From NCBI RefSeq assembly GCF_056746865.1, contig NZ_CM163382.1: a DNA stretch of 64,000 nucleotides; one strand, given 5' to 3'. Below, in pieces: positions 1-8,929 of the stretch (its first letter is position 1; each line of letters opens with the position of its first letter). Position numbers and translations under genes: made by a program. The notes beneath the pieces were generated by a model. The model saw only the letters and a program-made list of their open reading frames with translations. It made no database searches and was not told the DNA's origin.

Positions 1-185
1 GCAAAAAACGAGCAGTGGTTGACTATATTTCAGGTATGATGGATACATTTGCAGTCAAGGAATGGGAAACTCACTGTCTGAAGTAACACTGCCGATTACC
101 AGAGGCGCATATTTTCCCGTTATGGTTATTGCGCCTTTATTCCGTTTCGGTGACAGGTTATTTTAAATATTCTGGAAATGCGTTG

Positions 186-512
186 ATGGGCAAGAACAAT
201 TACCCTGAAAATAAATACAGGAAATGGTTTTCCACAGCAATAACATATCTTATTACAGGTGGTTTGTGCTGGTATATGTTGTGGGCATCCGCTATATCTC
301 ATTATACTGTTTTACAAAATACGGTACCTGAATGGACAACATATTTTTGCACCGGTATAATCACCGGATCTCTTTCTTTTATTTATGCATTTTATATCCG
401 CACCTTTAACAGAACATTAAAGTCTTTATTAAATGCATTCACGGGGGGATTTTGTCTTGGATTTATACTGAGTCCTGATGAATCCCCTAATGATTTTGAT
501 AAAAATCATTAG
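186..512 (+). CDS. hypothetical small membrane protein (about 108 aa)
   Basis: Track ORF 129..512 begins at TTG; first in-frame ATG at 186; several hydrophobic segments; no family recognised; 3-prime end runs into the 475..524 palindrome. Confidence 0.3.
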   Translation: MGKNNYPENKYRKWFSTAITYLITGGLCWYMLWASAISHYTVLQNTVPEWTTYFCTGIITGSLSFIYAFYIRTFNRTLKSLLNAFTGGFCLGFILSPDESPNDFDKNH

Positions 513-800
513 GGGATTCATCAGTGCTTGACCTTGTTTAAAAGCTGTAATATCGCAATTTACTAACTCAATATCTAAATCCATTGGCTTGGATGTACCT
601 CCTGCCTCAAGGAAGCTTTTTGAAAGCTGTCCAAAATCAATAGACTGATCAGCTGATTTCTGAGAAATGCTGCATGGAGCATCAACAACAGTTCCGTTAA
701 AAGTTACTTTACCCTGCCCCTGTGGAATAGTTGGAGCAGCATTTACACCAAAAGACACCACTGCCATAGCTACCGCACCGGCAATAATCGACTTAATCAT
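429..800 (-). pseudogene. papA: papA-like major pilin gene, 5-prime fragment (3-prime end replaced)
   Basis: Translation MIKSIIAGAVAMAVVSFGVNAAPTIPQGQGKVTFNGTVVDAPCSISQ...DIELVNCDITAFK matches PapA N-terminus; similarity stops near 537, tail is unrelated; ATG at 800 with upstream AGAGG. Confidence 0.75.
475..524. repeat. 50-bp perfect palindrome made of two head-to-head IS10-like terminal inverted repeats
   Basis: CTGATGAATCCCCTAATGATTTT-GATA-AAAATCATTAGGGGATTCATCAG read directly; left arm matches the IS10/Tn10 outside end as I recall it. Confidence 0.55.
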
Positions 801-1006
801 AAATAACAACCTCTTTTTCATTACTGAACACACCAGAGATATCTGGCAATTTAAAATGACCCGATTACCTTTAATAACCAGATCAATACAAATAATATTC
901 TCGTATTTTCAGGGCAGGTTATTTATCGACAGAATACTGATATAACCTGTCTGCTTTCTGATAAGGACTTCTTTTTATCTGTAAGATAACTCCGGAATGC
1001 CATCAT

Positions 1007-1321
1007 TCAGTCAAATGCCGACGACTCATCTGTATAATAAGGTGCAAGCCTTGCTGCAAGAGCATTCAGCCGTATAAGTCTCCCAAGTGTTGTACTGAAA
1101 TACCCATTATTCATCTGGTATTTCTCGCAGACCTCCTTACGGGAGTGCCCACCTACCAGATAGTCCTTCATAGCCAGAATGACCCTGTCACTGTGAATAG
1201 AAGAAATACCTATCAGTAAAAAAAAATGCATTTCAGACATAGAGCCGGGCAACAGTACGCTCTCGCGTATATTCAGCAAAAACGCATTTCCTGACCGACT
1301 GATGACTTCATGATGCGCCAT
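1007..1321 (-). CDS. papB: PapB-family fimbrial operon regulator
   Basis: 104-aa product MAHHEVISRSGNAFLLNIRESVLLPGS... matches PapB/SfaB/FaeB family; sits upstream of the pilin gene on the same strand. Confidence 0.85.
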   Translation of the reverse strand: MAHHEVISRSGNAFLLNIRESVLLPGSMSEMHFFLLIGISSIHSDRVILAMKDYLVGGHSRKEVCEKYQMNNGYFSTTLGRLIRLNALAARLAPYYTDESSAFD

Positions 1322-1426
1322 GTTTCCCCCTTCTGTCGGGCCCCTGGATATATGCTTCCGGCCCGGAAATACTCTTCACGCAATAAGTTAAATTTAGTTT
1401 TTTATGTTGTAAATATTGATTTAAAC

Positions 1427-1532
1427 GATCTTTTAACCCACAAAATAAAATTAAACTAGAATAAAACACTAATAATAAGAATGCGCTCAGATAAAAACAT
1501 CATAGTAAATTGAATTTACAGCATAAAAGATC
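1427..1532. promoter_or_regulatory. pap-type phase-variation switch: two GATC (Dam) sites 102 bp apart in the papI-papB intergenic region
   Basis: GATC at 1427-1430 (CGATCTTTTA) and 1529-1532 (AAAAGATCGT) read directly; spacing and flanks fit the Lrp/Dam pap switch; intergenic length 422 bp. Confidence 0.7.
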
Positions 1533-1641
1533 GTCTAAATGCATTTTTACGGACTTTCTTTTCACAGAAAAATAAAACGCAAAATGTGATACATATCAAA
1601 TAAAGCAAATAAAAAGCAAATTCACTAAATTGCACAAATAA

Positions 1642-1668
1642 AGCAAACACAGCAAACACAGCAAACAC
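1642..1668. repeat. 3 x 9-bp perfect tandem repeat (AGCAAACAC)
   Basis: Read directly upstream of papI start. Confidence 0.8.
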
Positions 1669-1743
1669 AGAGAATAAAAATACCTTTCCGTTGATAACAG
1701 AAAGCATGATTTTTATTATTCGAAGAAACTTTGTTACAGTGAG

Positions 1744-1966
1744 ATGAGTGAATATATGAAGAATGAAATACTGGAATTTCTGAACAGGCATGATGGAGGG
1801 AAAACGGCAGAAATTGCGGAGGCGCTGGCGGTAACGGATTACCAGGCCCGCTATTACCTGTTATTACTGGAAAAAGCAGGTATGGTTCAGCGCTCACCAT
1901 TAAGACGGGGCATGGCAACATACTGGCTTCTGAAAGGAGAGAAGCAGGCGGGGCAGAGTTGTTCAC
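1744..1966 (+). pseudogene. papI: papI-like regulator gene, C-terminus replaced at junction with ISCR2 fragment
   Basis: [16 protein letters not shown]...RRGMATYW matches PapI; homology ends after ...AGQSCS (about 1966), then the frame runs into IS91-family sequence. Confidence 0.7.
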
Positions 1967-2612
1967 TTTGCAAACTCTGCCGACCAGTGGTGATCCGTTC
2001 GGTGACGGGATTGGCAAGGTAGCCGGGTCCAGCCTGCACGCCGGCGTGGCGGCCAGGGCCGATGAACGCAAGAAGCTCGAACGGCTGTGCCGGTACATCA
2101 GCCGCCCGGCGGTATCCGAGAAGCGGCTGTCGTTAACACGAGGCGGCAACGTGCGCTACCAGCTCAAGACGCCGTACCGGGACGGCACCACGCACGTCAT
2201 TTTCGAACCATTGGATTTCATTGCAAGGCTGGCCGCCCTGGTACCGAAGCCCAGAGTCAACCTAACCCGCTTCCACGGGGTGTTCGCACCCAACAGTCGG
2301 CACCGGGCGTTGGTCACGCCGGCAAAACGGGGCAGGGGCAACAAGGTCAGGGTGGCTGATGAACCGGCAACACCAGCACAACGGCGAGCGTCGATGACAT
2401 GGGCGCAACGGCTCAAGCGTGTTTTCAATATCGACATCGAGACCTGCAGCGGCTGCGGCGGCGCCATGAAAGTCATCGCCTGCATTGAAGACCCTATAGT
2501 GATCAAGCAGATCCTTGATCACCTGAAGCACAAAGCCGAAACCAGCGGGACCAGGGCGTTACCCGAAAGCCGGGCGCCACCGGCTGAGCTGCTCCTGGGT
2601 CTGTTTGACTGA
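1966..2612 (+). mobile_element. ISCR2-like (IS91 family) transposase gene, 3-prime fragment
   Basis: C-terminal translation ...NIDIETCSGCGGAMKVIACIEDPIVIKQILDHLK... is IS91/ISCR-family; lies upstream of the virD2-like/floR unit. Confidence 0.65.
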
Positions 2613-2642
2613 CGAGCCTGAAGGCCAACGATACCAATCAAA

Positions 2643-3527
2643 ATGCTGCGTTCACAGCGCCGCGGCAGGGATCCGCCGTGCTGGTTGTCGGAAAAGGAGC
2701 CGCTAGTGGGAAAGAGGAGGGTAAATTTTCAGCGTTGCTGGCTCCCCGTCAGCCGGATTGGGTTGCATCGCAGGGGTGTCGAAAGAGTCAACTGCGGTCC
2801 AAAGCTGTTGGACTTGGGTGAAAAGGGCGTTTATTCTTCCTATACGTGCCGCGTTCCAGGCGGCGACTATGAGGGCTATGTCGATGCCCATGTGCGCCGG
2901 CTGGAGGCGCTACGCCGGGCCGGTATCGTCGAGCGGATCGACGCCGACCAATGGCGCATCCCCAATGATCTGGTCAGCCGTGCCGCCGCCCATGACGCCG
3001 GCCGAGACAGTCAGGCCAGCGTTCGCGTCCTTTCCCCGGTCGATCTGAACAAACAGATCGGATCGGACGGCGCGACCTGGCTGGACCGGCGGCTGATCCA
3101 CGGCGAGACGGCCGACCTTGCGCCAACCGGCTTCGGGCAACAAGTCCGCGAAGCCATGGACCAGCGCCGCGAGCACCATATCGAACAGGGCGACGCCACC
3201 CGCAGCCGGGACAGCCGCGTCTTCTACCGGCGCAACCTTCTCGCCATCCTGCGGGAGCGCGAGGTAGCCGGCGTCGGATCGGATATGGCTTTGAGTAAGG
3301 GCCTGCCGTTCCGCGCCGCCACGGACGGCGAGAGCGTCAGCGGCAAGTTTACCGGAACCGTGCATCTATCGAGCGGCAAGTTCGCCGTGGTCGAGAAATC
3401 CCATGAGTTCACCCTTGTCCCGTGGCGGCCGATCATCGACCGCCAACTCGGCCGCGAGGTTATGGGCATCGTGCAGGGCGGGTCGGTGTCGTGGCAGTTA
3501 GGGCGGCAGAGGGGGCTGGAACGCTGA
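2643..3527 (+). CDS. truncated relaxase-like ORF (virD2-like) that usually accompanies floR
   Basis: 294-aa ORF directly upstream of floR in the ISCR2-floR module; recognised by context and recalled similarity, function uncertain. Confidence 0.5.
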   Translation: MLRSQRRGRDPPCWLSEKEPLVGKRRVNFQRCWLPVSRIGLHRRGVERVNCGPKLLDLGEKGVYSSYTCRVPGGDYEGYVDAHVRRLEALRRAGIVERIDADQWRIPNDLVSRAAAHDAGRDSQASVRVLSPVDLNKQIGSDGATWLDRRLIHGETADLAPTGFGQQVREAMDQRREHHIEQGDATRSRDSRVFYRRNLLAILREREVAGVGSDMALSKGLPFRAATDGESVSGKFTGTVHLSSGKFAVVEKSHEFTLVPWRPIIDRQLGREVMGIVQGGSVSWQLGRQRGLER

Positions 3528-3743
3528 GTGCGCCCATGCCGCATTGCGAAGCAAAAGATAATCGGATAAAATGTAGCAATTCATATTCGTAAGCGTGGAG
3601 TAATCAGATGGGAAATTCCAAGTCAGCAGACAAGTAAGCCGCAACAACCAGTATTGTTGTTGCGGCGCTCTGTAAGGCTAGTCTCATCTGATTGCTGACG
3701 AGCAGACGTCGCCCGGTATTCCTTAATCGAGGGTTGATTCGTC

Positions 3744-4958
3744 ATGACCACCACACGCCCCGCGTGGGCCTATACGCTGCCGGCAGCACTGCTGCTGATG
3801 GCTCCTTTCGACATCCTCGCTTCACTGGCGATGGATATTTATCTCCCTGTCGTTCCAGCGATGCCCGGCATCCTGAACACGACGCCCGCTATGATCCAAC
3901 TCACGTTGAGCCTCTATATGGTGATGCTCGGCGTGGGCCAGGTGATTTTTGGTCCGCTCTCAGACAGAATCGGGCGACGGCCAATTCTACTTGCGGGCGC
4001 AACGGCTTTCGTCATTGCGTCTCTGGGAGCAGCTTGGTCTTCAACTGCACCGGCCTTTGTCGCTTTCCGTCTACTTCAAGCAGTGGGCGCGTCGGCCATG
4101 CTGGTGGCGACGTTCGCGACGGTTCGCGACGTTTATGCCAACCGTCCTGAGGGTGTCGTCATCTACGGCCTTTTCAGTTCGATGCTGGCGTTCGTGCCTG
4201 CGCTCGGCCCTATCGCCGGAACATTGATCGGCGAGTTCTTGGGATGGCAGGCGATATTCATTACTTTGGCTATACTGGCGATGCTCGCACTCCTAAATGC
4301 GGGTTTCAGGTGGCACGAAACCCGCCCTCTGGATCAAGTCAAGACGCGCCGATCTGTCTTGCCGATCTTCGCGAGTCCGGCTTTTTGGGTTTACACTGTC
4401 GGCTTTAGCGCCGGTATGGGCACCTACTTCGTCTTCTTCTCGACGGCTCCCCGTGTGCTCATAGGCCAAGCGGAATATTCCGAGATCGGATTCAGCTTTG
4501 CCTTCGCCACTGTCGCGCTTGTAATGATCGTGACAACCCGTTTCGCGAAGTCCTTTGTCGCCAGATGGGGCATCGCAGGATGCGTGGCGCGTGGGATGGC
4601 GTTGCTTGTTTGCGGAGCGGTCCTGTTGGGGAGCGGCGAACTTTACGGCTCGCCGTCATTCCTCACCTTCATCCTACCGATGTGGGTTGTCGCGGTCGGT
4701 ATTGTCTTCACGGTGTCCGTTACCGCGAACGGCGCTTTGGCAGAGTTCGACGACATCGCGGGATCAGCGGTCGCGTTCTACTTCTGCGTTCAAAGCCTGA
4801 TAGTCAGCATTGTCGGGACATTGGCGGTGGCACTTTTAAACGGTGACACAGCGTGGCCCGTGATCTGTTACGCCACGGCGATGGCGGTACTGGTTTCGTT
4901 GGGGCTGGTGCTCCTTCGGCTCCGTGGGGCTGCCACCGAGAAGTCGCCAGTCGTCTAA
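3744..4958 (+). CDS. floR: florfenicol/chloramphenicol MFS efflux protein FloR
   Basis: 404-aa product MTTTRPAWAYTLPAALLLMAPFDILASLAMDIYLPVVPAMPGIL... matches FloR over full length. Confidence 0.95.
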   Translation: MTTTRPAWAYTLPAALLLMAPFDILASLAMDIYLPVVPAMPGILNTTPAMIQLTLSLYMVMLGVGQVIFGPLSDRIGRRPILLAGATAFVIASLGAAWSSTAPAFVAFRLLQAVGASAMLVATFATVRDVYANRPEGVVIYGLFSSMLAFVPALGPIAGTLIGEFLGWQAIFITLAILAMLALLNAGFRWHETRPLDQVKTRRSVLPIFASPAFWVYTVGFSAGMGTYFVFFSTAPRVLIGQAEYSEIGFSFAFATVALVMIVTTRFAKSFVARWGIAGCVARGMALLVCGAVLLGSGELYGSPSFLTFILPMWVVAVGIVFTVSVTANGALAEFDDIAGSAVAFYFCVQSLIVSIVGTLAVALLNGDTAWPVICYATAMAVLVSLGLVLLRLRGAATEKSPVV

Positions 4959-4985
4959 CCGACGACTGGTAGCAGGCCCGCTCCG

Positions 4986-5291
4986 ATGCGGCGCACTAAC
5001 CATCGAAACCTCGTGAATGTCGGTATCCTGTCTGGCAGGATACCGCTCATTTCCCTTGTTCAGTTCATCGCCGTCGCCGAGCATCTGAATTTTCGGCATG
5101 CGGCCAAGGCACTTGGTATCAGCCAGTCGAGCGTCAGCGCGCGTGTGAAAGCGCTGGAGGATAACCTTGGTGTCCTGCTATTTGAGCGCCATGCGCGGGG
5201 CGTTCGGCTAACAGACGCAGGCAGGCACTTCATGGAGCGTGTCACGGCGGGTGTCGATCAACTCGATCACGCAGTGAAGACCGCGGAGTGA
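4986..5291 (+). pseudogene. LysR-family regulator, N-terminal HTH fragment (floR-associated)
   Basis: 101-aa product with LysR-type HTH (FIAVAEHLNFRHAAKALGISQSSVSARVKALE); too short for a full LysR protein. Confidence 0.6.
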
Positions 5292-5402
5292 CGGGCACTG
5301 GCTGGCAATGTCTAGCAACGGCAGGCATTTCGGCTGAGGGTAAAAGAACTTTCCGCTAAGCGATAGACTGTATGTAAACACAGTATTGCAAGGACGCGGA
5401 AC

Positions 5403-5588
5403 ATGCCTCATGTGGCGGCCAGGACGGCCAGCCGGGATCGGGATACTGGTCGTTACCAGAGCCACCGACCCGAGCAAACCCTTCTCTATCAGATCGTTGA
5501 CGAGTATTACCCGGCATTCGCTGCGCTTATGGCAGAGCAGGGAAAGGAATTGCCGGGCTATGTGCAACGGGAATTTGAAGAATTTCTC
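5403..5588 (+). mobile_element. ISCR2-like transposase gene, 5-prime fragment truncated at tetA junction
   Basis: N-terminal IS91-family motif TLLYQIVDEYYPAFAALMAEQGKELPGYVQREFEEFL; similarity ends about 5588 where the tetA 3-prime end begins. Confidence 0.55.
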
Positions 5589-6757
5589 CAAAGCCCGCGA
5601 CGCAGCGCCGGCAGGCAGAGCAAGTAGAGGGCAGCGCCTGCAATCCATGCCCACCCGTTCCACGTTGTTATAGAAGCCGCATAGATCGCCGTGAAGAGGA
5701 GGGGTCCGACGATCGAGGTCAGGCTGGTGAGCGCCGCCAGTGAGCCTTGCAGCTGCCCCTGACGTTCCTCATCCACCTGCCTGGACAACATTGCTTGCAG
5801 CGCCGGCATTCCGATGCCACCCGAAGCAAGCAGGACCATGATCGGGAACGCCATCCATCCCCGTGTCGCGAAGGCAAGCAGGATGTAGCCTGTGCCGTCG
5901 GCAATCATTCCGAGCATGAGTGCCCGCCTTTCGCCGAGCCGGGCGGCTACAGGGCCGGTGATCATTGCCTGGGCGAGTGAATGCAGAATGCCAAATGCGG
6001 CAAGCGAAATGCCGATCGTGGTCGCGTCCCAGTGAAAGCGATCCTCGCCGAAAATGACCCAAAGCGCGGCCGGCACCTGTCCGACAAGTTGCATGATGAA
6101 GAAGACCGCCATCAGGGCGGCGACGACGGTCATGCCCCGGGCCCACCGGAACGAAGCGAGCGGGTTGAGAGCCTCCCGGCGTAACGGCCGGCGTTCGCCT
6201 TTGTGCGACTCCGGCAAAAGGAAACAGCCCGTCAGGAAATTGAGGCCGTTCAAGGCTGCCGCGGCGAAGAACGGAGCGTGGGGGGAGAAACCGCCCATCA
6301 GCCCACCGAGCACAGGTCCCGCGACCATCCCGAACCCGAAACAGGCGCTCATGAAGCCGAAGTGCCGCGCGCGCTCATCGCCATCAGTGATATCGGCAAT
6401 ATAAGCGCCGGCTACCGCCCCAGTCGCCCCGGTGATGCCGGCCACGATCCGCCCGATATAGAGAACCCAAAGGAAAGGCGTCGTCGCCATGATGGCGTAG
6501 TCGACAGCAGCGCCGGCCAGCGAGACGAGCAAGACCGGCCGCCGCCCGAAACGATCCGACAGCGCGCCCAGCACAGGTGCGCAGGCAAATTGCATCAACG
6601 CATACAGCGCCAGCAGAATGCCATAGTGGGCGGTGACGTCGTTCGAGTGAACCAGATCGCGCAGGAGGCCCGGCAGCACCGGCATAATCAGGCCGATGCC
6701 GACAGCGTCGAGCGCGACAGTGCTCAGAATTACGATCAGGGGTCTGTTGGGTTTCAC
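5558..6757 (-). CDS. tetA: tetracycline efflux MFS transporter TetA, class A, GTG start, variant last 9 residues
   Basis: VKPNRPLIVILSTVALDAVGIGLIMPVLPGLLRDLVHS... matches TetA(A); divergent to tetR with operators between; C-terminal ...RGLWRNSSNSRCT differs from my recollection of canonical TetA(A). Confidence 0.9.
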   Translation of the reverse strand: MKPNRPLIVILSTVALDAVGIGLIMPVLPGLLRDLVHSNDVTAHYGILLALYALMQFACAPVLGALSDRFGRRPVLLVSLAGAAVDYAIMATTPFLWVLYIGRIVAGITGATGAVAGAYIADITDGDERARHFGFMSACFGFGMVAGPVLGGLMGGFSPHAPFFAAAALNGLNFLTGCFLLPESHKGERRPLRREALNPLASFRWARGMTVVAALMAVFFIMQLVGQVPAALWVIFGEDRFHWDATTIGISLAAFGILHSLAQAMITGPVAARLGERRALMLGMIADGTGYILLAFATRGWMAFPIMVLLASGGIGMPALQAMLSRQVDEERQGQLQGSLAALTSLTSIVGPLLFTAIYAASITTWNGWAWIAGAALYLLCLPALRRGLWRNSSNSRCT

Positions 6758-6805
6758 GTCTGGCCTCCGGACCAGCCTCCGCTGGTCCGATTGAACGCGC
6801 GGATT

Positions 6806-6854
6806 CTTTATCACTGATAAGTTGGTGGACATATTATGTTTATCAGTGATAAAG
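6806..6854. promoter_or_regulatory. tetA/tetR divergent promoter region with two palindromic tet operators
   Basis: TTTATCACTGATAAG and TTTATCAGTGATAAAG palindromes read directly between the divergent genes. Confidence 0.6.
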
Positions 6855-6862
6855 TGTCAAGC

Positions 6863-7513
6863 ATGACAAAGTTGCAGCCGAATACAGTGATCCGTGCCGC
6901 CCTGGACCTGTTGAACGAGGTCGGCGTAGACGGTCTGACGACACGCAAACTGGCGGAACGGTTGGGGGTTCAGCAGCCGGCGCTTTACTGGCACTTCAGG
7001 AACAAGCGGGCGCTGCTCGACGCACTGGCCGAAGCCATGCTGGCGGAGAATCATACGCATTCGGTGCCGAGAGCCGACGACGACTGGCGCTCATTTCTGA
7101 TCGGGAATGCCCGCAGCTTCAGGCAGGCGCTGCTCGCCTACCGCGATGGCGCGCGCATCCATGCCGGCACGCGACCGGGCGCACCGCAGATGGAAACGGC
7201 CGACGCGCAGCTTCGCTTCCTCTGCGAGGCGGGTTTTTCGGCCGGGGACGCCGTCAATGCGCTGATGACAATCAGCTACTTCACTGTTGGGGCCGTGCTT
7301 GAGGAGCAGGCCGGCGACAGCGATGCCGGCGAGCGCGGCGGCACCGTTGAACAGGCTCCGCTCTCGCCGCTGTTGCGGGCCGCGATAGACGCCTTCGACG
7401 AAGCCGATCCGGACGCAGCGTTCGAGCAGGGACTCGCGGTGATTGTCGATGGATTGGCGAAAAGGAGGCTCGTTGTCAGGAACGTTGAAGGACCGAGAAA
7501 GGGTGACGATTGA
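6863..7513 (+). CDS. tetR: tetracycline repressor TetR, class A
   Basis: MTKLQPNTVIRAALDLLNEVGVDGLTTRKLAERLGVQQPALYWHFRNKRALLDAL... matches TetR(A). Confidence 0.9.
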   Translation: MTKLQPNTVIRAALDLLNEVGVDGLTTRKLAERLGVQQPALYWHFRNKRALLDALAEAMLAENHTHSVPRADDDWRSFLIGNARSFRQALLAYRDGARIHAGTRPGAPQMETADAQLRFLCEAGFSAGDAVNALMTISYFTVGAVLEEQAGDSDAGERGGTVEQAPLSPLLRAAIDAFDEADPDAAFEQGLAVIVDGLAKRRLVVRNVEGPRKGDD

Positions 7514-7986
7514 TCAGGACCGCTGCCGGAGCGCAACCCACTCACTACAGCAGAGCCATGTAGACAACATCCCCTCCCCCTTTCCACCGCGTCAGACGCC
7601 CGTAGCAGCCCGCTACGGGCTTTTTCATGCCCTGCCCTAGCGTCCAAGCCTCACGGCCGCGCTCGGCCTCTCTGGCGGCCTTCTGGCGCTCCTGCTGCGG
7701 CGTCCGCTCGTGGGCCGTGGCGCGGGTCCGCGCGCCGGCCTCGTGCGCCTGGCGCTCGCGGGCGAGGTCCAGGGCGGCCGTCTTCACGTTCTGCCTTGCG
7801 CAGATGAGATAGATCTAGCGTGGACTCAAGGCTCTCGCGAATGGCTCGCGTTGGAAACTTTCATTGACACTTGAGGGGCACCGCAGGGAAATTCTCGTCC
7901 TTGCGAGAACCGGCTATGTCGTGCTGCGCATCGAGCCTGCGCCCTTGGCTTGTCTCGCCCCTCTCCGCGTCGCTACGGGGCTTCCA

Positions 7987-8067
7987 GGGGTCGTTTGCGG
8001 GAAGGGGCGGAATCCTACGCTAAGGCTTTGGCCAGCGATATTCTCCGGTGAGATTGATGTGTTCCCA
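7987..8067. repeat. Tn3-family terminal inverted repeat downstream of strB (Tn5393-type right IR)
   Basis: GGGGTCGTTTGCGGGAAGGGGCGGAATCCTACGCTAAG starts at 7987, outermost GGGG facing away from strB, about 70 bp past the strB stop. Confidence 0.5.
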
Positions 8068-8092
8068 GGGGATAGGAGAAGTCGCTTGATAT

Positions 8093-8929
8093 CTAGTATG
8101 ACGTCTGTCGCACCTGCTTGATCGCGGCCGCGATAGCTAGATCGCGTTGCTCCTCTTCTCCATCCGCGTTCCAAGCTGCGGAAAGGCACCCATAAGCGTA
8201 CGCCTGGTCGAGCAGGCGACGCGGATCGACGTCCAGCGCACGAGAGAATGCGTCCGCCATCTGTGCAATGCGTCTAGGATCGAGACAAAGGTCGTCTCTG
8301 TCAGCCGGATCGTAGAACATATTGGCGGCGCCAAAGCCCACTTCACCGACCAGACCGACGGGATCTATCACCAGCCAGCCGCGACTGGAGAACATGATGT
8401 TTTCATGATGCAGATCGCCATGTAGCCCACGCAGTTCCGAGGCATTGCTCATCATTTGATCGGCTATAATCGCCGCGTGGACGTACTCAGTTTGACAACC
8501 TGCGTTTTGATCATCGCGCGCCCGCTGAAACAAAGCTGCAAAGCGATCCCGGATCGGGAGAAGGGCAGAAGGCAGGGGTTCCTCAGATGCGGCATACAGC
8601 TTCGCCATTAGTTCCGCTGCAATTTCGGTCGCCTGGTAGTCGCCGTGCTCGGCAACGATGTGAGAGAGCATTCGCTCCCCGGCATATTCGAGCAACATCA
8701 GATTGTTCTCACGACCGAGCAACCGGACTGCTCCCCTCCCATTGCGCCATACCAGATAGTCGGCCCCGCGCAGTTCATCAGCAATGTCTTCTATAGGTTT
8801 CAATCCCTTGACGATTGCAGGAGTCCCGTCTGGCAATGAAACTTTCCAAACGAGGCTGGAAAAGGTGTCCGCAATGAGAACAGGTTGCGAAACGTGCCAA
8901 TGAGCAGGAAAAACAGGCGGCATGAACAT
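8093..8929 (-). CDS. strB: aminoglycoside 6-phosphotransferase APH(6)-Id (StrB)
   Basis: MFMPPVFPAHWHVSQPVLIADTFSSLVWKVSLPDGTPAIVKGL... full-length match; start ATG overlaps strA stop (ATGA). Confidence 0.93.
   Translation of the reverse strand: MFMPPVFPAHWHVSQPVLIADTFSSLVWKVSLPDGTPAIVKGLKPIEDIADELRGADYLVWRNGRGAVRLLGRENNLMLLEYAGERMLSHIVAEHGDYQATEIAAELMAKLYAASEEPLPSALLPIRDRFAALFQRARDDQNAGCQTEYVHAAIIADQMMSNASELRGLHGDLHHENIMFSSRGWLVIDPVGLVGEVGFGAANMFYDPADRDDLCLDPRRIAQMADAFSRALDVDPRRLLDQAYAYGCLSAAWNADGEEEQRDLAIAAAIKQVRQTSY

Follow-up and report, generated by a model that had tools for sequence, protein, structure and literature searches.

The window analysed here is a 64,000-nucleotide stretch of contig NZ_CM163382.1 (assembly GCF_056746865.1). 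It opens with the end of an anti-phage-type dGTPase gene of the dgt family, a truncated gene for a predicted membrane protein (gene X') and a 50-bp palindrome. These are followed by a papA fragment, an intact papB, the papB-papI intergenic region and a papI gene that is fused to part of an ISCR2 transposase gene (Table 1). Beyond the ISCR2 part the order is DUF3363/virD2'-floR-lysR-ISCR2 fragment-tet(A)-tetR-strBA-sul2. The pap DNA extends from 525 to 1964, and it differs from the intact papGII operon of N68 at one private base (788) and in the copy number of a 9-bp repeat. This near-identity shows that the likeness to pap is not a chance resemblance.

Table 1. Features at the pap locus, in window coordinates.
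Feature	Position	Strand	Remarks
dGTPase gene (dgt family, anti-phage type), 3' end	1..86	+	Annotated in Sanji, ECCNB12-2 and pNDM5_LS003
Truncated gene X' (predicted membrane protein)	186..474	+	First 96 of 189 codons
Tn10 "nearly precise excision" scar	475..524		50 bp; two IS10 outside ends, near-perfect palindrome
papA'	525..800	-	Codons 1-92 of 182; signal peptide and N-terminal part of the pilin
papB	1321..1007	-	Intact, 104 aa
papB-papI intergenic regulatory region	1322..1743		422 bp; holds the Dam/Lrp switch
GATC proximal (GATC-prox equivalent)	1427..1430		In ACGATC; "proximal" inferred from the distance to papB
GATC distal (GATC-dist equivalent)	1529..1532		In ACGATC on the minus strand
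CRP-like site TGTGATACATATCAAA	1585..1600		Read from the sequence
9-bp tandem repeat AGCAAACAC	1642..1670		3 copies, where PapB site 1 is described
papI promoter-like site, TTGATA-17-TATTAT	1691..1719	+	Consensus scan, 10/12 matches; consensus match only
papI' fusion ORF	1744..2022	+	92 aa: PapI residues 1-74 plus 18 residues from ISCR2 DNA
Microhomology patch at the papI/ISCR2 joint	1945..1964		Seen by aligning the window with intact papI, full ISCR2 and a Shigella plasmid
ISCR2 (IS91-family) transposase gene, 3' part	1965..2612	+	Pfam Y2_Tnp profile positions 97-179 of 183

The papB product matches the Pfam PapB family (PF03333, E=1e-36), and the gene is nucleotide-identical to the copies in the intact operon (N68, L005) and in EC31, APEC O2-211, Sanji and others. 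The sequence-only reading had called papB intact, and these comparisons agree. The identity holds in every examined context that retains papB, namely the pheV island, the dgt island and an IncI plasmid, with isolates from the USA and China. Residues R61 and C65, which are needed for DNA binding by PapB (PMC7734786), are both present by direct reading of the translation.

The pap regulatory region is described as about 416 bp long and as containing six sites for Lrp and two GATC sites (PMC9820224, PMC11316696). At the locus papB and papI' diverge across a region of the pap-type switch layout, and this region is identical to that of the intact N68 operon except for the number of repeat copies. 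GATC occurs between 1300 and 1760 at only two places, 102 bp apart and both in ACGATC contexts (TTAAACGATCTTTTAA and, on the reverse strand, AGACGATCTTTTAT). The sequence-only reading had proposed such a pair with pap-like flanks, and the intact N68 operon has the same one. According to Hernday et al. in 2003, ACGATC is reportedly required for the PapI response (Lrp sites 2 and 5). The CRP consensus is TGTGA-N6-TCACA, and the CRP-like site matches 9 of its 10 specified bases. Its location fits the published CRP site, which has the GATC sites on one side and PapB site 1 on the other (PMC11316696). Tandem Repeats Finder scored the 9-bp repeat at 3.2 copies with 100% identity. The copy number is 1, 3, 5, 8 or 14 across otherwise near-identical loci, with 14 in N68, and a literature search found no report of polymorphism in this repeat. 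An Rfam search of window 1-4000 gave no match.

The native part of papI (1744-1964) comprises 74 of 77 codons. The terminal Ser-Thr-Thr is lost, and the fusion reading frame stops at 2020-2022 after a tail that brings in two extra cysteines. The loss of the last papI codons at an ISCR2 junction had been placed at about 1966 from the letters alone, and alignment puts the joint at 1964/1965, after codon 74. The fusion protein is RefSeq WP_001349530.1. Its match to Pfam FaeA (PF04703, E=1e-30) spans residues 5-64. The break lies outside this conserved domain, 10 residues past its end. The PapI structure 2HTJ has an 81-residue chain of which only residues 1-72 align (to PapI' residues 5-76), and the solved construct therefore has extra, non-native residues past the native end. 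A single-sequence AlphaFold model of PapI' (mean pLDDT 59.8, low confidence) weakly suggests that the fold ends near residue 63. The parts that remain make up a complete regulatory cassette: papB, both promoters, the CRP site, PapB site 1, the two Lrp/Dam GATC sites and the full winged-helix domain of papI'.

Most likely, the cassette could still take the Lrp/Dam OFF state. In pap-type switches PapI moves Lrp from the proximal to the distal sites, and protection by Lrp and methylation exclude each other at the two GATC sites, which makes the ON and OFF states heritable. A papI-null strain fails to switch from OFF to ON (PMC4546395). If the altered C-terminus inactivates PapI', the switch would stay locked OFF, with no more than basal synthesis of PapB. 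We regard it as a serious possibility, at somewhat less than even odds, that the relic is inert, either because PapI' is non-functional or because H-NS and Lrp silence the region; papB expression would then be negligible and the cell would not be affected. The lack of the native C-terminus and the 18 foreign residues with their cysteines fit this explanation. It is also consistent with the general lack of a substitute for PapI in the carriers. In 24 of the 30 best-matching carrier chromosomes listed, megablast with the 1.7-kb query finds no further match, even to a part of it, which means that at this sensitivity they have no second pap/sfa/foc-type regulatory region to supply a PapI homologue. 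Moreover, papB and the switch have been lost in some lineages, where nothing points to compensation. IS1 abuts the equivalent of window position ~1697 in three loci (L013, L017 and L022), and these are without the papI -35 box, the repeat, the CRP site, both GATC sites, papB and papA'. On the other hand, the whole FaeA/PapI domain is intact, the solved PapI construct also carries residues beyond the native end, and every cis element is the same as in the intact operon. A full-length papI::gfp fusion was expressed as a PapI::GFP reporter (PMC4546395), a result that speaks to expression and not to function. If PapI' is active, a subpopulation could flip to the ON state, which would yield PapB together with a truncated PapA' that has no chaperone and would be degraded in the periplasm. 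No fimbriae would be made, and if the cell were affected at all, the cause would be a trans effect of PapB on type 1 fimbrial switching.

The joint between papI and ISCR2 was resolved to the base. The last papI-specific base is 1959, the TGTTC at 1960-1964 is shared, and the first ISCR2-specific base is 1965; the microhomology sits within a patch that is similar at 18 of 21 positions. RefSeq annotates the ISCR2 part as "ISCR2 family transposase, missing N-terminus", and the full element was found in L007. The joint is at neither oriIS nor terIS, the genuine ends of the element. It is inside the transposase reading frame at TGTTC, which identifies it as an illegitimate-recombination joint and not a transposition end. 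A floR-linked ISCR2 variant that already carried a papI-identical 20-mer, so that homology drove the joint, was considered and judged unlikely. The variant query was found at 99% identity or more in at most 21 of 2,767 plasmids, NZ_CP058772 was the only one seen to carry the variant, and the canonical sequence is usual.

Downstream of the joint, papI', the ISCR2 fragment, DUF3363 and floR all lie on the plus strand. A simple scan of 1965-3744 found no strong plus-strand terminator, only a 5-bp stem at 2400, and the papI promoter-like site is a good one. We consider it very unlikely, nevertheless, that transcription from the papI promoter, phase-linked and activated by PapB and CRP, crosses the ISCR2 fragment and DUF3363 and enters floR. 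The floR gene has a promoter-like site of its own at 3544-3572 and gives resistance in thousands of plasmids without papI, ISCR2 contexts without pap are seen, and 1.8 kb of untranslated or poorly translated RNA would be prone to Rho termination. If such read-through did occur, it would add a heterogeneous component to florfenicol/chloramphenicol resistance.

On the other side of papB, papA breaks at 524/525 after codon 92 (...NCDITAFKQGQA), where the N68 allele, which encodes a 182-aa PapA, continues with KQGQA. A truncated papA had been recognized in the sequence-only reading. The truncation stands, and the break that it put at about 537 is moved by the N68 comparison. The papA' translation equals residues 1-92 of N68 PapA except for V5I, and the reading frame runs on through the palindrome until a stop at 429-431, which makes the product 123 aa long. 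Its Pfam Fimbrial match covers only profile positions 2-54 of 151, and RefSeq annotates a partial papA. The locus has no complete papA, no papC usher, no papD chaperone, no tip subunits and no papG adhesin, and the genes from papH to papG are absent. Past the palindrome there are only the truncated membrane-protein gene and the dGTPase gene, in line with the earlier statement that no usher or chaperone follows. A papA that ends at codon 92 next to these neighbors is not part of a functional fimbrial operon. The description of an orphaned switch with both flanking genes truncated thus holds, with the cause and position of the papA break corrected. What cuts papA is the 50-bp palindrome, which the sequence-only reading had overlooked.

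The palindrome is an exact match to the Tn10 of EC31, made up of nucleotides 1-23 of the left end and the last 27 of the right end, and the deletion endpoints are a 10-bp direct repeat, TAATGATTTT. Ross, Swan and Kleckner (1979) and Foster et al. (1981), which are cited in bioRxiv 10.1101/2023.06.07.543989, are said to have described such a remnant of Tn10 "nearly precise excision" as a 50-bp palindrome of the IS10 outside ends. Like that remnant, the scar holds both IS10 outside ends and can be derived by deletion between short direct repeats near them. Unlike the classic remnant, which keeps the 9-bp duplication on both sides, this one has flanks that come from gene X and papA. The adjacent 9-mers are unlike, TACTGAGTC on the left and TGCTTGACC on the right, and a common 9-bp target duplication was not found on the two sides of the scar. 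The right 9-mer is the target duplication of papA::Tn10 in EC31, and the left one marks where gene X is broken, so a further rearrangement must be assumed. In the papA' transcript the scar RNA is predicted to form a 23-bp stem (-39.7 kcal/mol, z = -8.8).

An intact gene X of 189 codons adjoins dgt in L011, and the 98% homology to it ends at window 474, right after TACTGAGTC. The gene X' frame stays open across the scar and stops at 510-512. Gene X had no convincing match in Pfam, and the dGTPase orthologue in L011 matches the PADLOC dGTPase model (E=2e-109). A native island context for the relic was rejected on the left side, where the flank is a dgt defence island that is intact in L011.

A precursor of the locus is found in EC31, where the order is pheV-int-...-tia-papG-F-E-K-'C-H-papA3'-Tn10-papA5'-papB-papI'-ISCR2 fragment-glmM'-sul2 and the 9-bp duplication TGCTTGACC flanks a whole Tn10 on both sides. 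APEC O2-211 from the USA has the same arrangement, and a full IS10 is at this papA position in 35 complete genomes. Among 5,426 complete E. coli genomes, 187 have the papI-ISCR2 joint and 128 have the scar joint. At least 1,000 contigs encode the fusion PapI protein, and it was found in 5,084 index blocks. One copy of the relic, together with dgt and floR, is on the IncI plasmid pNDM5_LS003 (NDM-5). Window 1-12401 is 99.7% identical to the island of Sanji. No complete E. coli genome is collinear past 12.4 kb, where the window joins a different island, and no complete genome has the join itself. The report on Sanji, an ST167 E. coli, describes a 69.2-kb chromosomal insertion with an 8.9-kb sul2-strAB-tetRA-floR cluster that is also found in six other, non-ST167 genomes; a term search of its main text found no mention of the pap remnant, the Tn10 scar or the papI-ISCR2 fusion (PMC6392093). 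A full-text literature search for papB/papI with floR, ISCR2 or ST167 found no description of the relic.

These comparisons suggest an order of events. Tn10 inserted into papA at codon 92/93 and duplicated the target TGCTTGACC, and the ISCR2-sul2 module became joined to codon 74 of papI by illegitimate recombination at the TGTTC in its transposase gene; both joints are seen in EC31. From the end sequences, in the lineage of the window a second copy of Tn10 or IS10 probably entered the membrane-protein gene beside the dGTPase gene, and recombination between the copies would have replaced the distal pap genes. None of the genomes retrieved carries Tn10 or IS10 within gene X. Tn10 was then reduced to the 50-bp scar, and floR, tet(A) and strAB were inserted between ISCR2 and sul2. 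The last three steps may have come in another relative order. We therefore favor, at roughly three chances in four, the view that the segment is a recent, decaying relic of a papGII P-fimbrial operon from a pheV-type pathogenicity island, kept because it is wedged between resistance determinants and not for making pili. So read, it is an ordinary pathogenicity-island remnant that hitchhikes with resistance genes.

Apart from the private base at 788, there are no substitutions among the relic copies or against the intact allele, and consequently there is no selection signal. This point bears on the idea that the cassette is a domesticated regulator that selection has kept. On that view, PapB would be produced in a proportion of cells that varies epigenetically and would repress type 1 fimbriae or other adhesins, to the benefit of resistance-island hosts in, for example, colonization or conjugation. 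Two independent breakpoints, Tn10 in papA and ISCR2 in papI, spare papB and the whole switch, and papB is unchanged in the pheV island, the dgt island and the IncI plasmid wherever it is retained. That PapB represses type 1 fimbrial switching is established, and it locks fimS, inhibits FimB switching and raises fimE expression (PMC11316696). We find selection of this kind unlikely all the same. Youth alone explains the conservation, the IS1-deleted variants without papB persist in several assemblies, and the relic always adjoins strongly selected resistance genes, which are enough to explain its frequency.

Viewed as a regulatory unit, the relic resembles the canonical papI-papB switch of the N68 papGII operon in its divergent genes, its ACGATC pair at 102 bp, its CRP-like site and its PapB site 1 repeats. 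It differs from that operon in having no structural or assembly genes, in the foreign tail of PapI' and in its 3 repeat copies against 14. A second likeness is to pMB2, a resistance plasmid with an orphan papB/pefB paralogue (Monarrez & Okeke 2020, PMC7734786). In both cases a PapB-family regulator has mobile and resistance genes as neighbors but no fimbrial operon, and an effect in trans on chromosomal fim is proposed or shown. The pMB2 protein acts in trans, damps fim-dependent aggregation and possibly modulates conjugation (PMC7734786). The two differ in that the pMB2 protein shares just 29% identity with PapB and lacks a neighboring pap-type switch, whereas the relic has a true PapB with its whole control region and papI.

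The only function that is plausible for the relic is to supply the regulator PapB. Expression of PapB from the switch and cross-regulation of type 1 fimbriae are plausible; the sequence-only reading had supposed such expression and an effect on other fimbrial operons in the cell. The full combination, in which the switch still works on the multidrug-resistance island and PapB shuts off type 1 fimbriae in a heritable subpopulation of resistant E. coli, strikes us as quite improbable. Were it true, read-through from the papI promoter might add cell-to-cell variation in floR, the rate of switching would depend on the hypervariable 9-bp repeat in PapB site 1, and gain of the island would rewire adhesin phase variation in lineages without P fimbriae.

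The favored reading, a decaying remnant, has consequences for surveys and for tracing lineages. Where genome surveys take papB, papI or papA as a virulence gene for "P-fimbrial adhesion", the relic will be counted although it is unable to make pili. One worldwide survey of carbapenem-resistant E. coli reports papB, classed as an adhesion factor, in 25% of isolates (PMC10771496). The locus provides a clean, datable series from pathogenicity island to resistance island, running from the intact operon through Tn10 plus ISCR2 and the 50-bp scar to the IS1 deletion, and the papI-ISCR2 and scar joints can be used as lineage markers. If PapB is expressed from the relic, carriage of the resistance island would alter type 1 fimbrial phase variation.

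The pap relic lying between a Tn10 scar and an ISCR2 fragment (window 525–1964) was compared with the head of the intact papGII operon of strain N68. The two differ only at base 788, where a change private to the window gives PapA V5I, and in how many copies of a 9-bp repeat they have; all else is identical. Pfam models match the papB product (PapB, PF03333, E = 1e-36) and residues 5–64 of the papI product (FaeA/PapI, PF04703, E = 1e-30), and the Fimbrial model (PF00419) covers the papA fragment over profile positions 2–54 of 151 only. The papB–papI intergenic region holds just two GATC sites, at 1427 and 1529; they are exactly 102 bp apart and both embedded in the hexamer ACGATC as in N68, which bears out the pap-like pair proposed from the sequence alone. 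Judged by this identity, the region is true pap DNA and more than pap-like. The required cis elements (both GATC/Lrp sites, the CRP-like site, and the papI promoter-like site) are all present and the same as in the working operon. PapB retains R61 and C65, which are required for DNA binding (PMC7734786).

Features of the pap relic and its regulatory region (window coordinates; a prime marks a truncated gene)
Feature	Position	Strand	Basis or remark
papA', first 92 codons	800..525	minus	translation
papB, intact, 104 aa	1321..1007	minus	translation + Pfam
papB–papI intergenic region, 422 bp			two GATC sites within
CRP-like site	1585–1600		
9-bp tandem unit AGCAAACAC	1642–1670		between CRP-like site and papI promoter
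papI promoter-like site	1691–1719		
papI start	1744	plus	translation

The copy number of AGCAAACAC differs among otherwise identical or near-identical loci (also L002, L004, L005, L012, and L018). There is one copy in CP088753, three in the window, APEC O2-211 (L012), and the ST167 strain Sanji, five in L018, eight in EC31 (L004), and 14 in the intact N68 operon (L005). The repeat coincides with the described location of PapB site 1; its copy number therefore alters both the count of PapB-binding repeats and the spacing from CRP to the papI promoter. No literature on AGCAAACAC copy-number polymorphism was found.

Alignment with intact papI and full-length ISCR2 showed that native papI sequence extends to window 1964, which is 74 of 77 codons; the loss of the last codons (Ser-Thr-Thr) at an ISCR2 junction was correctly called. 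The frame then takes in 18 codons from ISCR2 before it stops at 2020–2022. A joint at a genuine ISCR2 end was rejected: the join is internal to the transposase gene, whose 3' part alone remains. The joint patch of papI (CAGGCGGGGC-AGAGTTGTTC) matches ISCR2 (CAGGCGGGGCGAAAGGTGTTC) at 18 of 21 positions, and the crossover falls inside a common TGTTC at 1960–1964. These positions point to illegitimate recombination at microhomology, not transposition. GTTC is the tetranucleotide target of IS91-family elements and is included in the shared pentamer, making an aberrant rolling-circle event a possible alternative to simple microhomology joining. The ISCR2 copy upstream of floR on Shigella flexneri plasmid NZ_CP058772 (about 3000–3020) has a papI-type 20-bp patch, CAGGCGGGGCAGAGTTGTTC (compare window 1945–1964), that differs from canonical ISCR2 by a 1-bp deletion and two substitutions and has ordinary ISCR2 sequence on either side. 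A query with this variant matched at most 21 of 2,767 plasmids at ≥99% identity, and the variant itself was seen on NZ_CP058772 only. The patch looks like a papI-derived conversion tract that moved out of the chromosomal joint to a plasmid.

The sequence-only reading was right that papA is cut but placed the site at about 537; the breakpoint is 524/525, and the allele goes on ...AFKQGQA. Two IS10 outside ends, which together form a near-perfect palindrome of 50 bp (475–524), cut papA; the palindrome is equal to the first 23 bp of the left Tn10 end of EC31 plus the last 27 bp of the right end. The Tn10 deletion endpoints behind it are a 10-bp direct repeat, TAATGATTTT. This anatomy (50 bp, short-repeat endpoints) is that of Tn10 nearly precise excision, as reported by Ross et al. 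1979 and Foster et al. 1981. As RNA, the scar folds into a 23-bp hairpin (−39.7 kcal/mol, z = −8.8) where the papA' transcript ends. The left flank is not papA but gene X, a membrane-protein gene next to a dGTPase defence gene and interrupted directly after TACTGAGTC; thus, the scar unites flanks of two Tn10 insertions, the left of one and the right of the other. Intact X (189 aa) is present in strain Es_ST80, and no genome with X::Tn10 was retrieved. Window 1–474 reads from the dGTPase gene into this predicted membrane protein, cut here at codon 96. The dGTPase orthologue matches the PADLOC dGTPase model (E = 2e-109). In Sanji-type carriers, the dGTPase gene sits in a defence-rich island (type I R-M, MazG-like, thymidylate synthase), and the intact dGTPase–membrane-protein pair occurs in Es_ST80.

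By sequence comparison, complete genomes retain earlier states of the relic. Avian strain EC31 has an island at tRNA-Phe (pheV) with the order int-AAA protein-PEtN transferase-tia-papGII-papF-papE-papK-'papC-papH-papA3'-Tn10(tetB)-papA5'-papB-papI'-ISCR2 fragment-glmM'-sul2, and its Tn10 has a 9-bp duplication, TGCTTGACC, on each side. APEC O2-211 (USA) is disrupted at both places in the same way, and its PapI fusion is the identical 92-aa protein. The Tn10 interior (tetB-gltS segment) lies in opposite orientations in these two strains with flanks alike, which indicates inversion between IS10 copies. A full IS10 abuts papA' at the same site in 35 complete genomes. Two Tn10 or IS10 copies would have recombined, deleting papH to papG, and collapse to the 50-bp scar would have followed. 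Compared with EC31, the window has gained DUF3363/virD2'-floR-lysR-ISCR2 fragment-tet(A)-tetR-strBA between the ISCR2 fragment and sul2.

Among 5,426 complete E. coli genomes, 187 have the papI-ISCR2 joint and 128 the X'-scar-papA' joint. Carriers came from poultry, pigs, cattle, dogs, gulls, a giant panda, river water, and humans, among other sources. The fusion PapI is RefSeq WP_001349530.1 ('MULTISPECIES'; at least 1,000 contigs, 5,084 index blocks). The dgt-X'-scar-papA'-papB-papI'-ISCR2 fragment-floR piece is also on the conjugative IncI plasmid pNDM5_LS003 (6455–12529) beside aac(3)-IIe and blaNDM-5; the scar palindrome there (8076–8102) is short by 27 bp (window 503–529). Window 1–12401 corresponds to the island of strain Sanji, a '69.2-kb insertion' that carries a resistance cluster of 8.9 kb and was also found in six non-ST167 genomes (PMC6392093). 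A term search of the main text of that paper returned no mention of the pap remnant. The Sanji-type island stops within a shared transposase fragment (12269–12401), a join found in no complete E. coli genome of the collection. The different island beyond it encodes a 1,291-aa S6 (SPATE) autotransporter (12840–16715), then AbgT, a ROK regulator, an ABC transporter, and sodC.

No other match to any part of the 1.7-kb query was present in 24 of the 30 carrier chromosomes that matched best; at megablast sensitivity, these 24 are without a second pap/sfa/foc-type regulatory region. The description as an orphaned switch is structurally right; its proposed function is a hypothesis. The N68, EC31, APEC O2-211, and Sanji copies differ by zero substitutions over about 1.4 kb; conservation on this scale reflects youth, and there is no evidence that selection maintains the relic. 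Erosion is ongoing. In three assemblies (L013, L017, and L022 at 5201–6001), IS1 abuts the papI leader at window ~1697, and the papI −35 box, repeat, CRP site, both GATC sites, papB, and papA' are gone, leaving the papI' fusion ORF alone. Ahead of IS1 in these assemblies lies the tet(B) portion of Tn10.

The main rival to a working switch is that PapI' is inactive and the switch locked OFF, since papI-null strains fail to switch ON (PMC4546395). PapI' keeps the whole conserved domain, and residues 1–72 of the solved 81-residue PapI construct 2HTJ, which has non-native residues after the native end, align to PapI' 5–76. With the cis elements, PapB residues, and PapI' domain intact, the cassette probably retains the ability to settle in the OFF state and, in part of the population, to flip ON. 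The ON state would yield PapB and PapA', a 123-aa product with a signal peptide but without most of the pilin fold. Chaperone-usher subunits without a chaperone are degraded in the periplasm, and PapA' without PapD would share this fate. PapB acts on fimS and fimE (PMC11316696), and no cellular output of the relic other than this action is plausible. A precedent is the papB paralogue stranded as an orphan on a resistance plasmid (PMC7734786).

These comparisons confirm the original observation, correct the papA breakpoint, and newly identify two junction mechanisms. The relic is a well-resolved case of a familiar type: mobile elements associated with resistance have pseudogenised a pathogenicity-island operon, and an orphan regulator cassette is what remains. 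The chief implication for practice is that matches to papB, papI, or papA in virulence-gene screens of such strains (e.g., PMC10771496) are no sign of P fimbriae.
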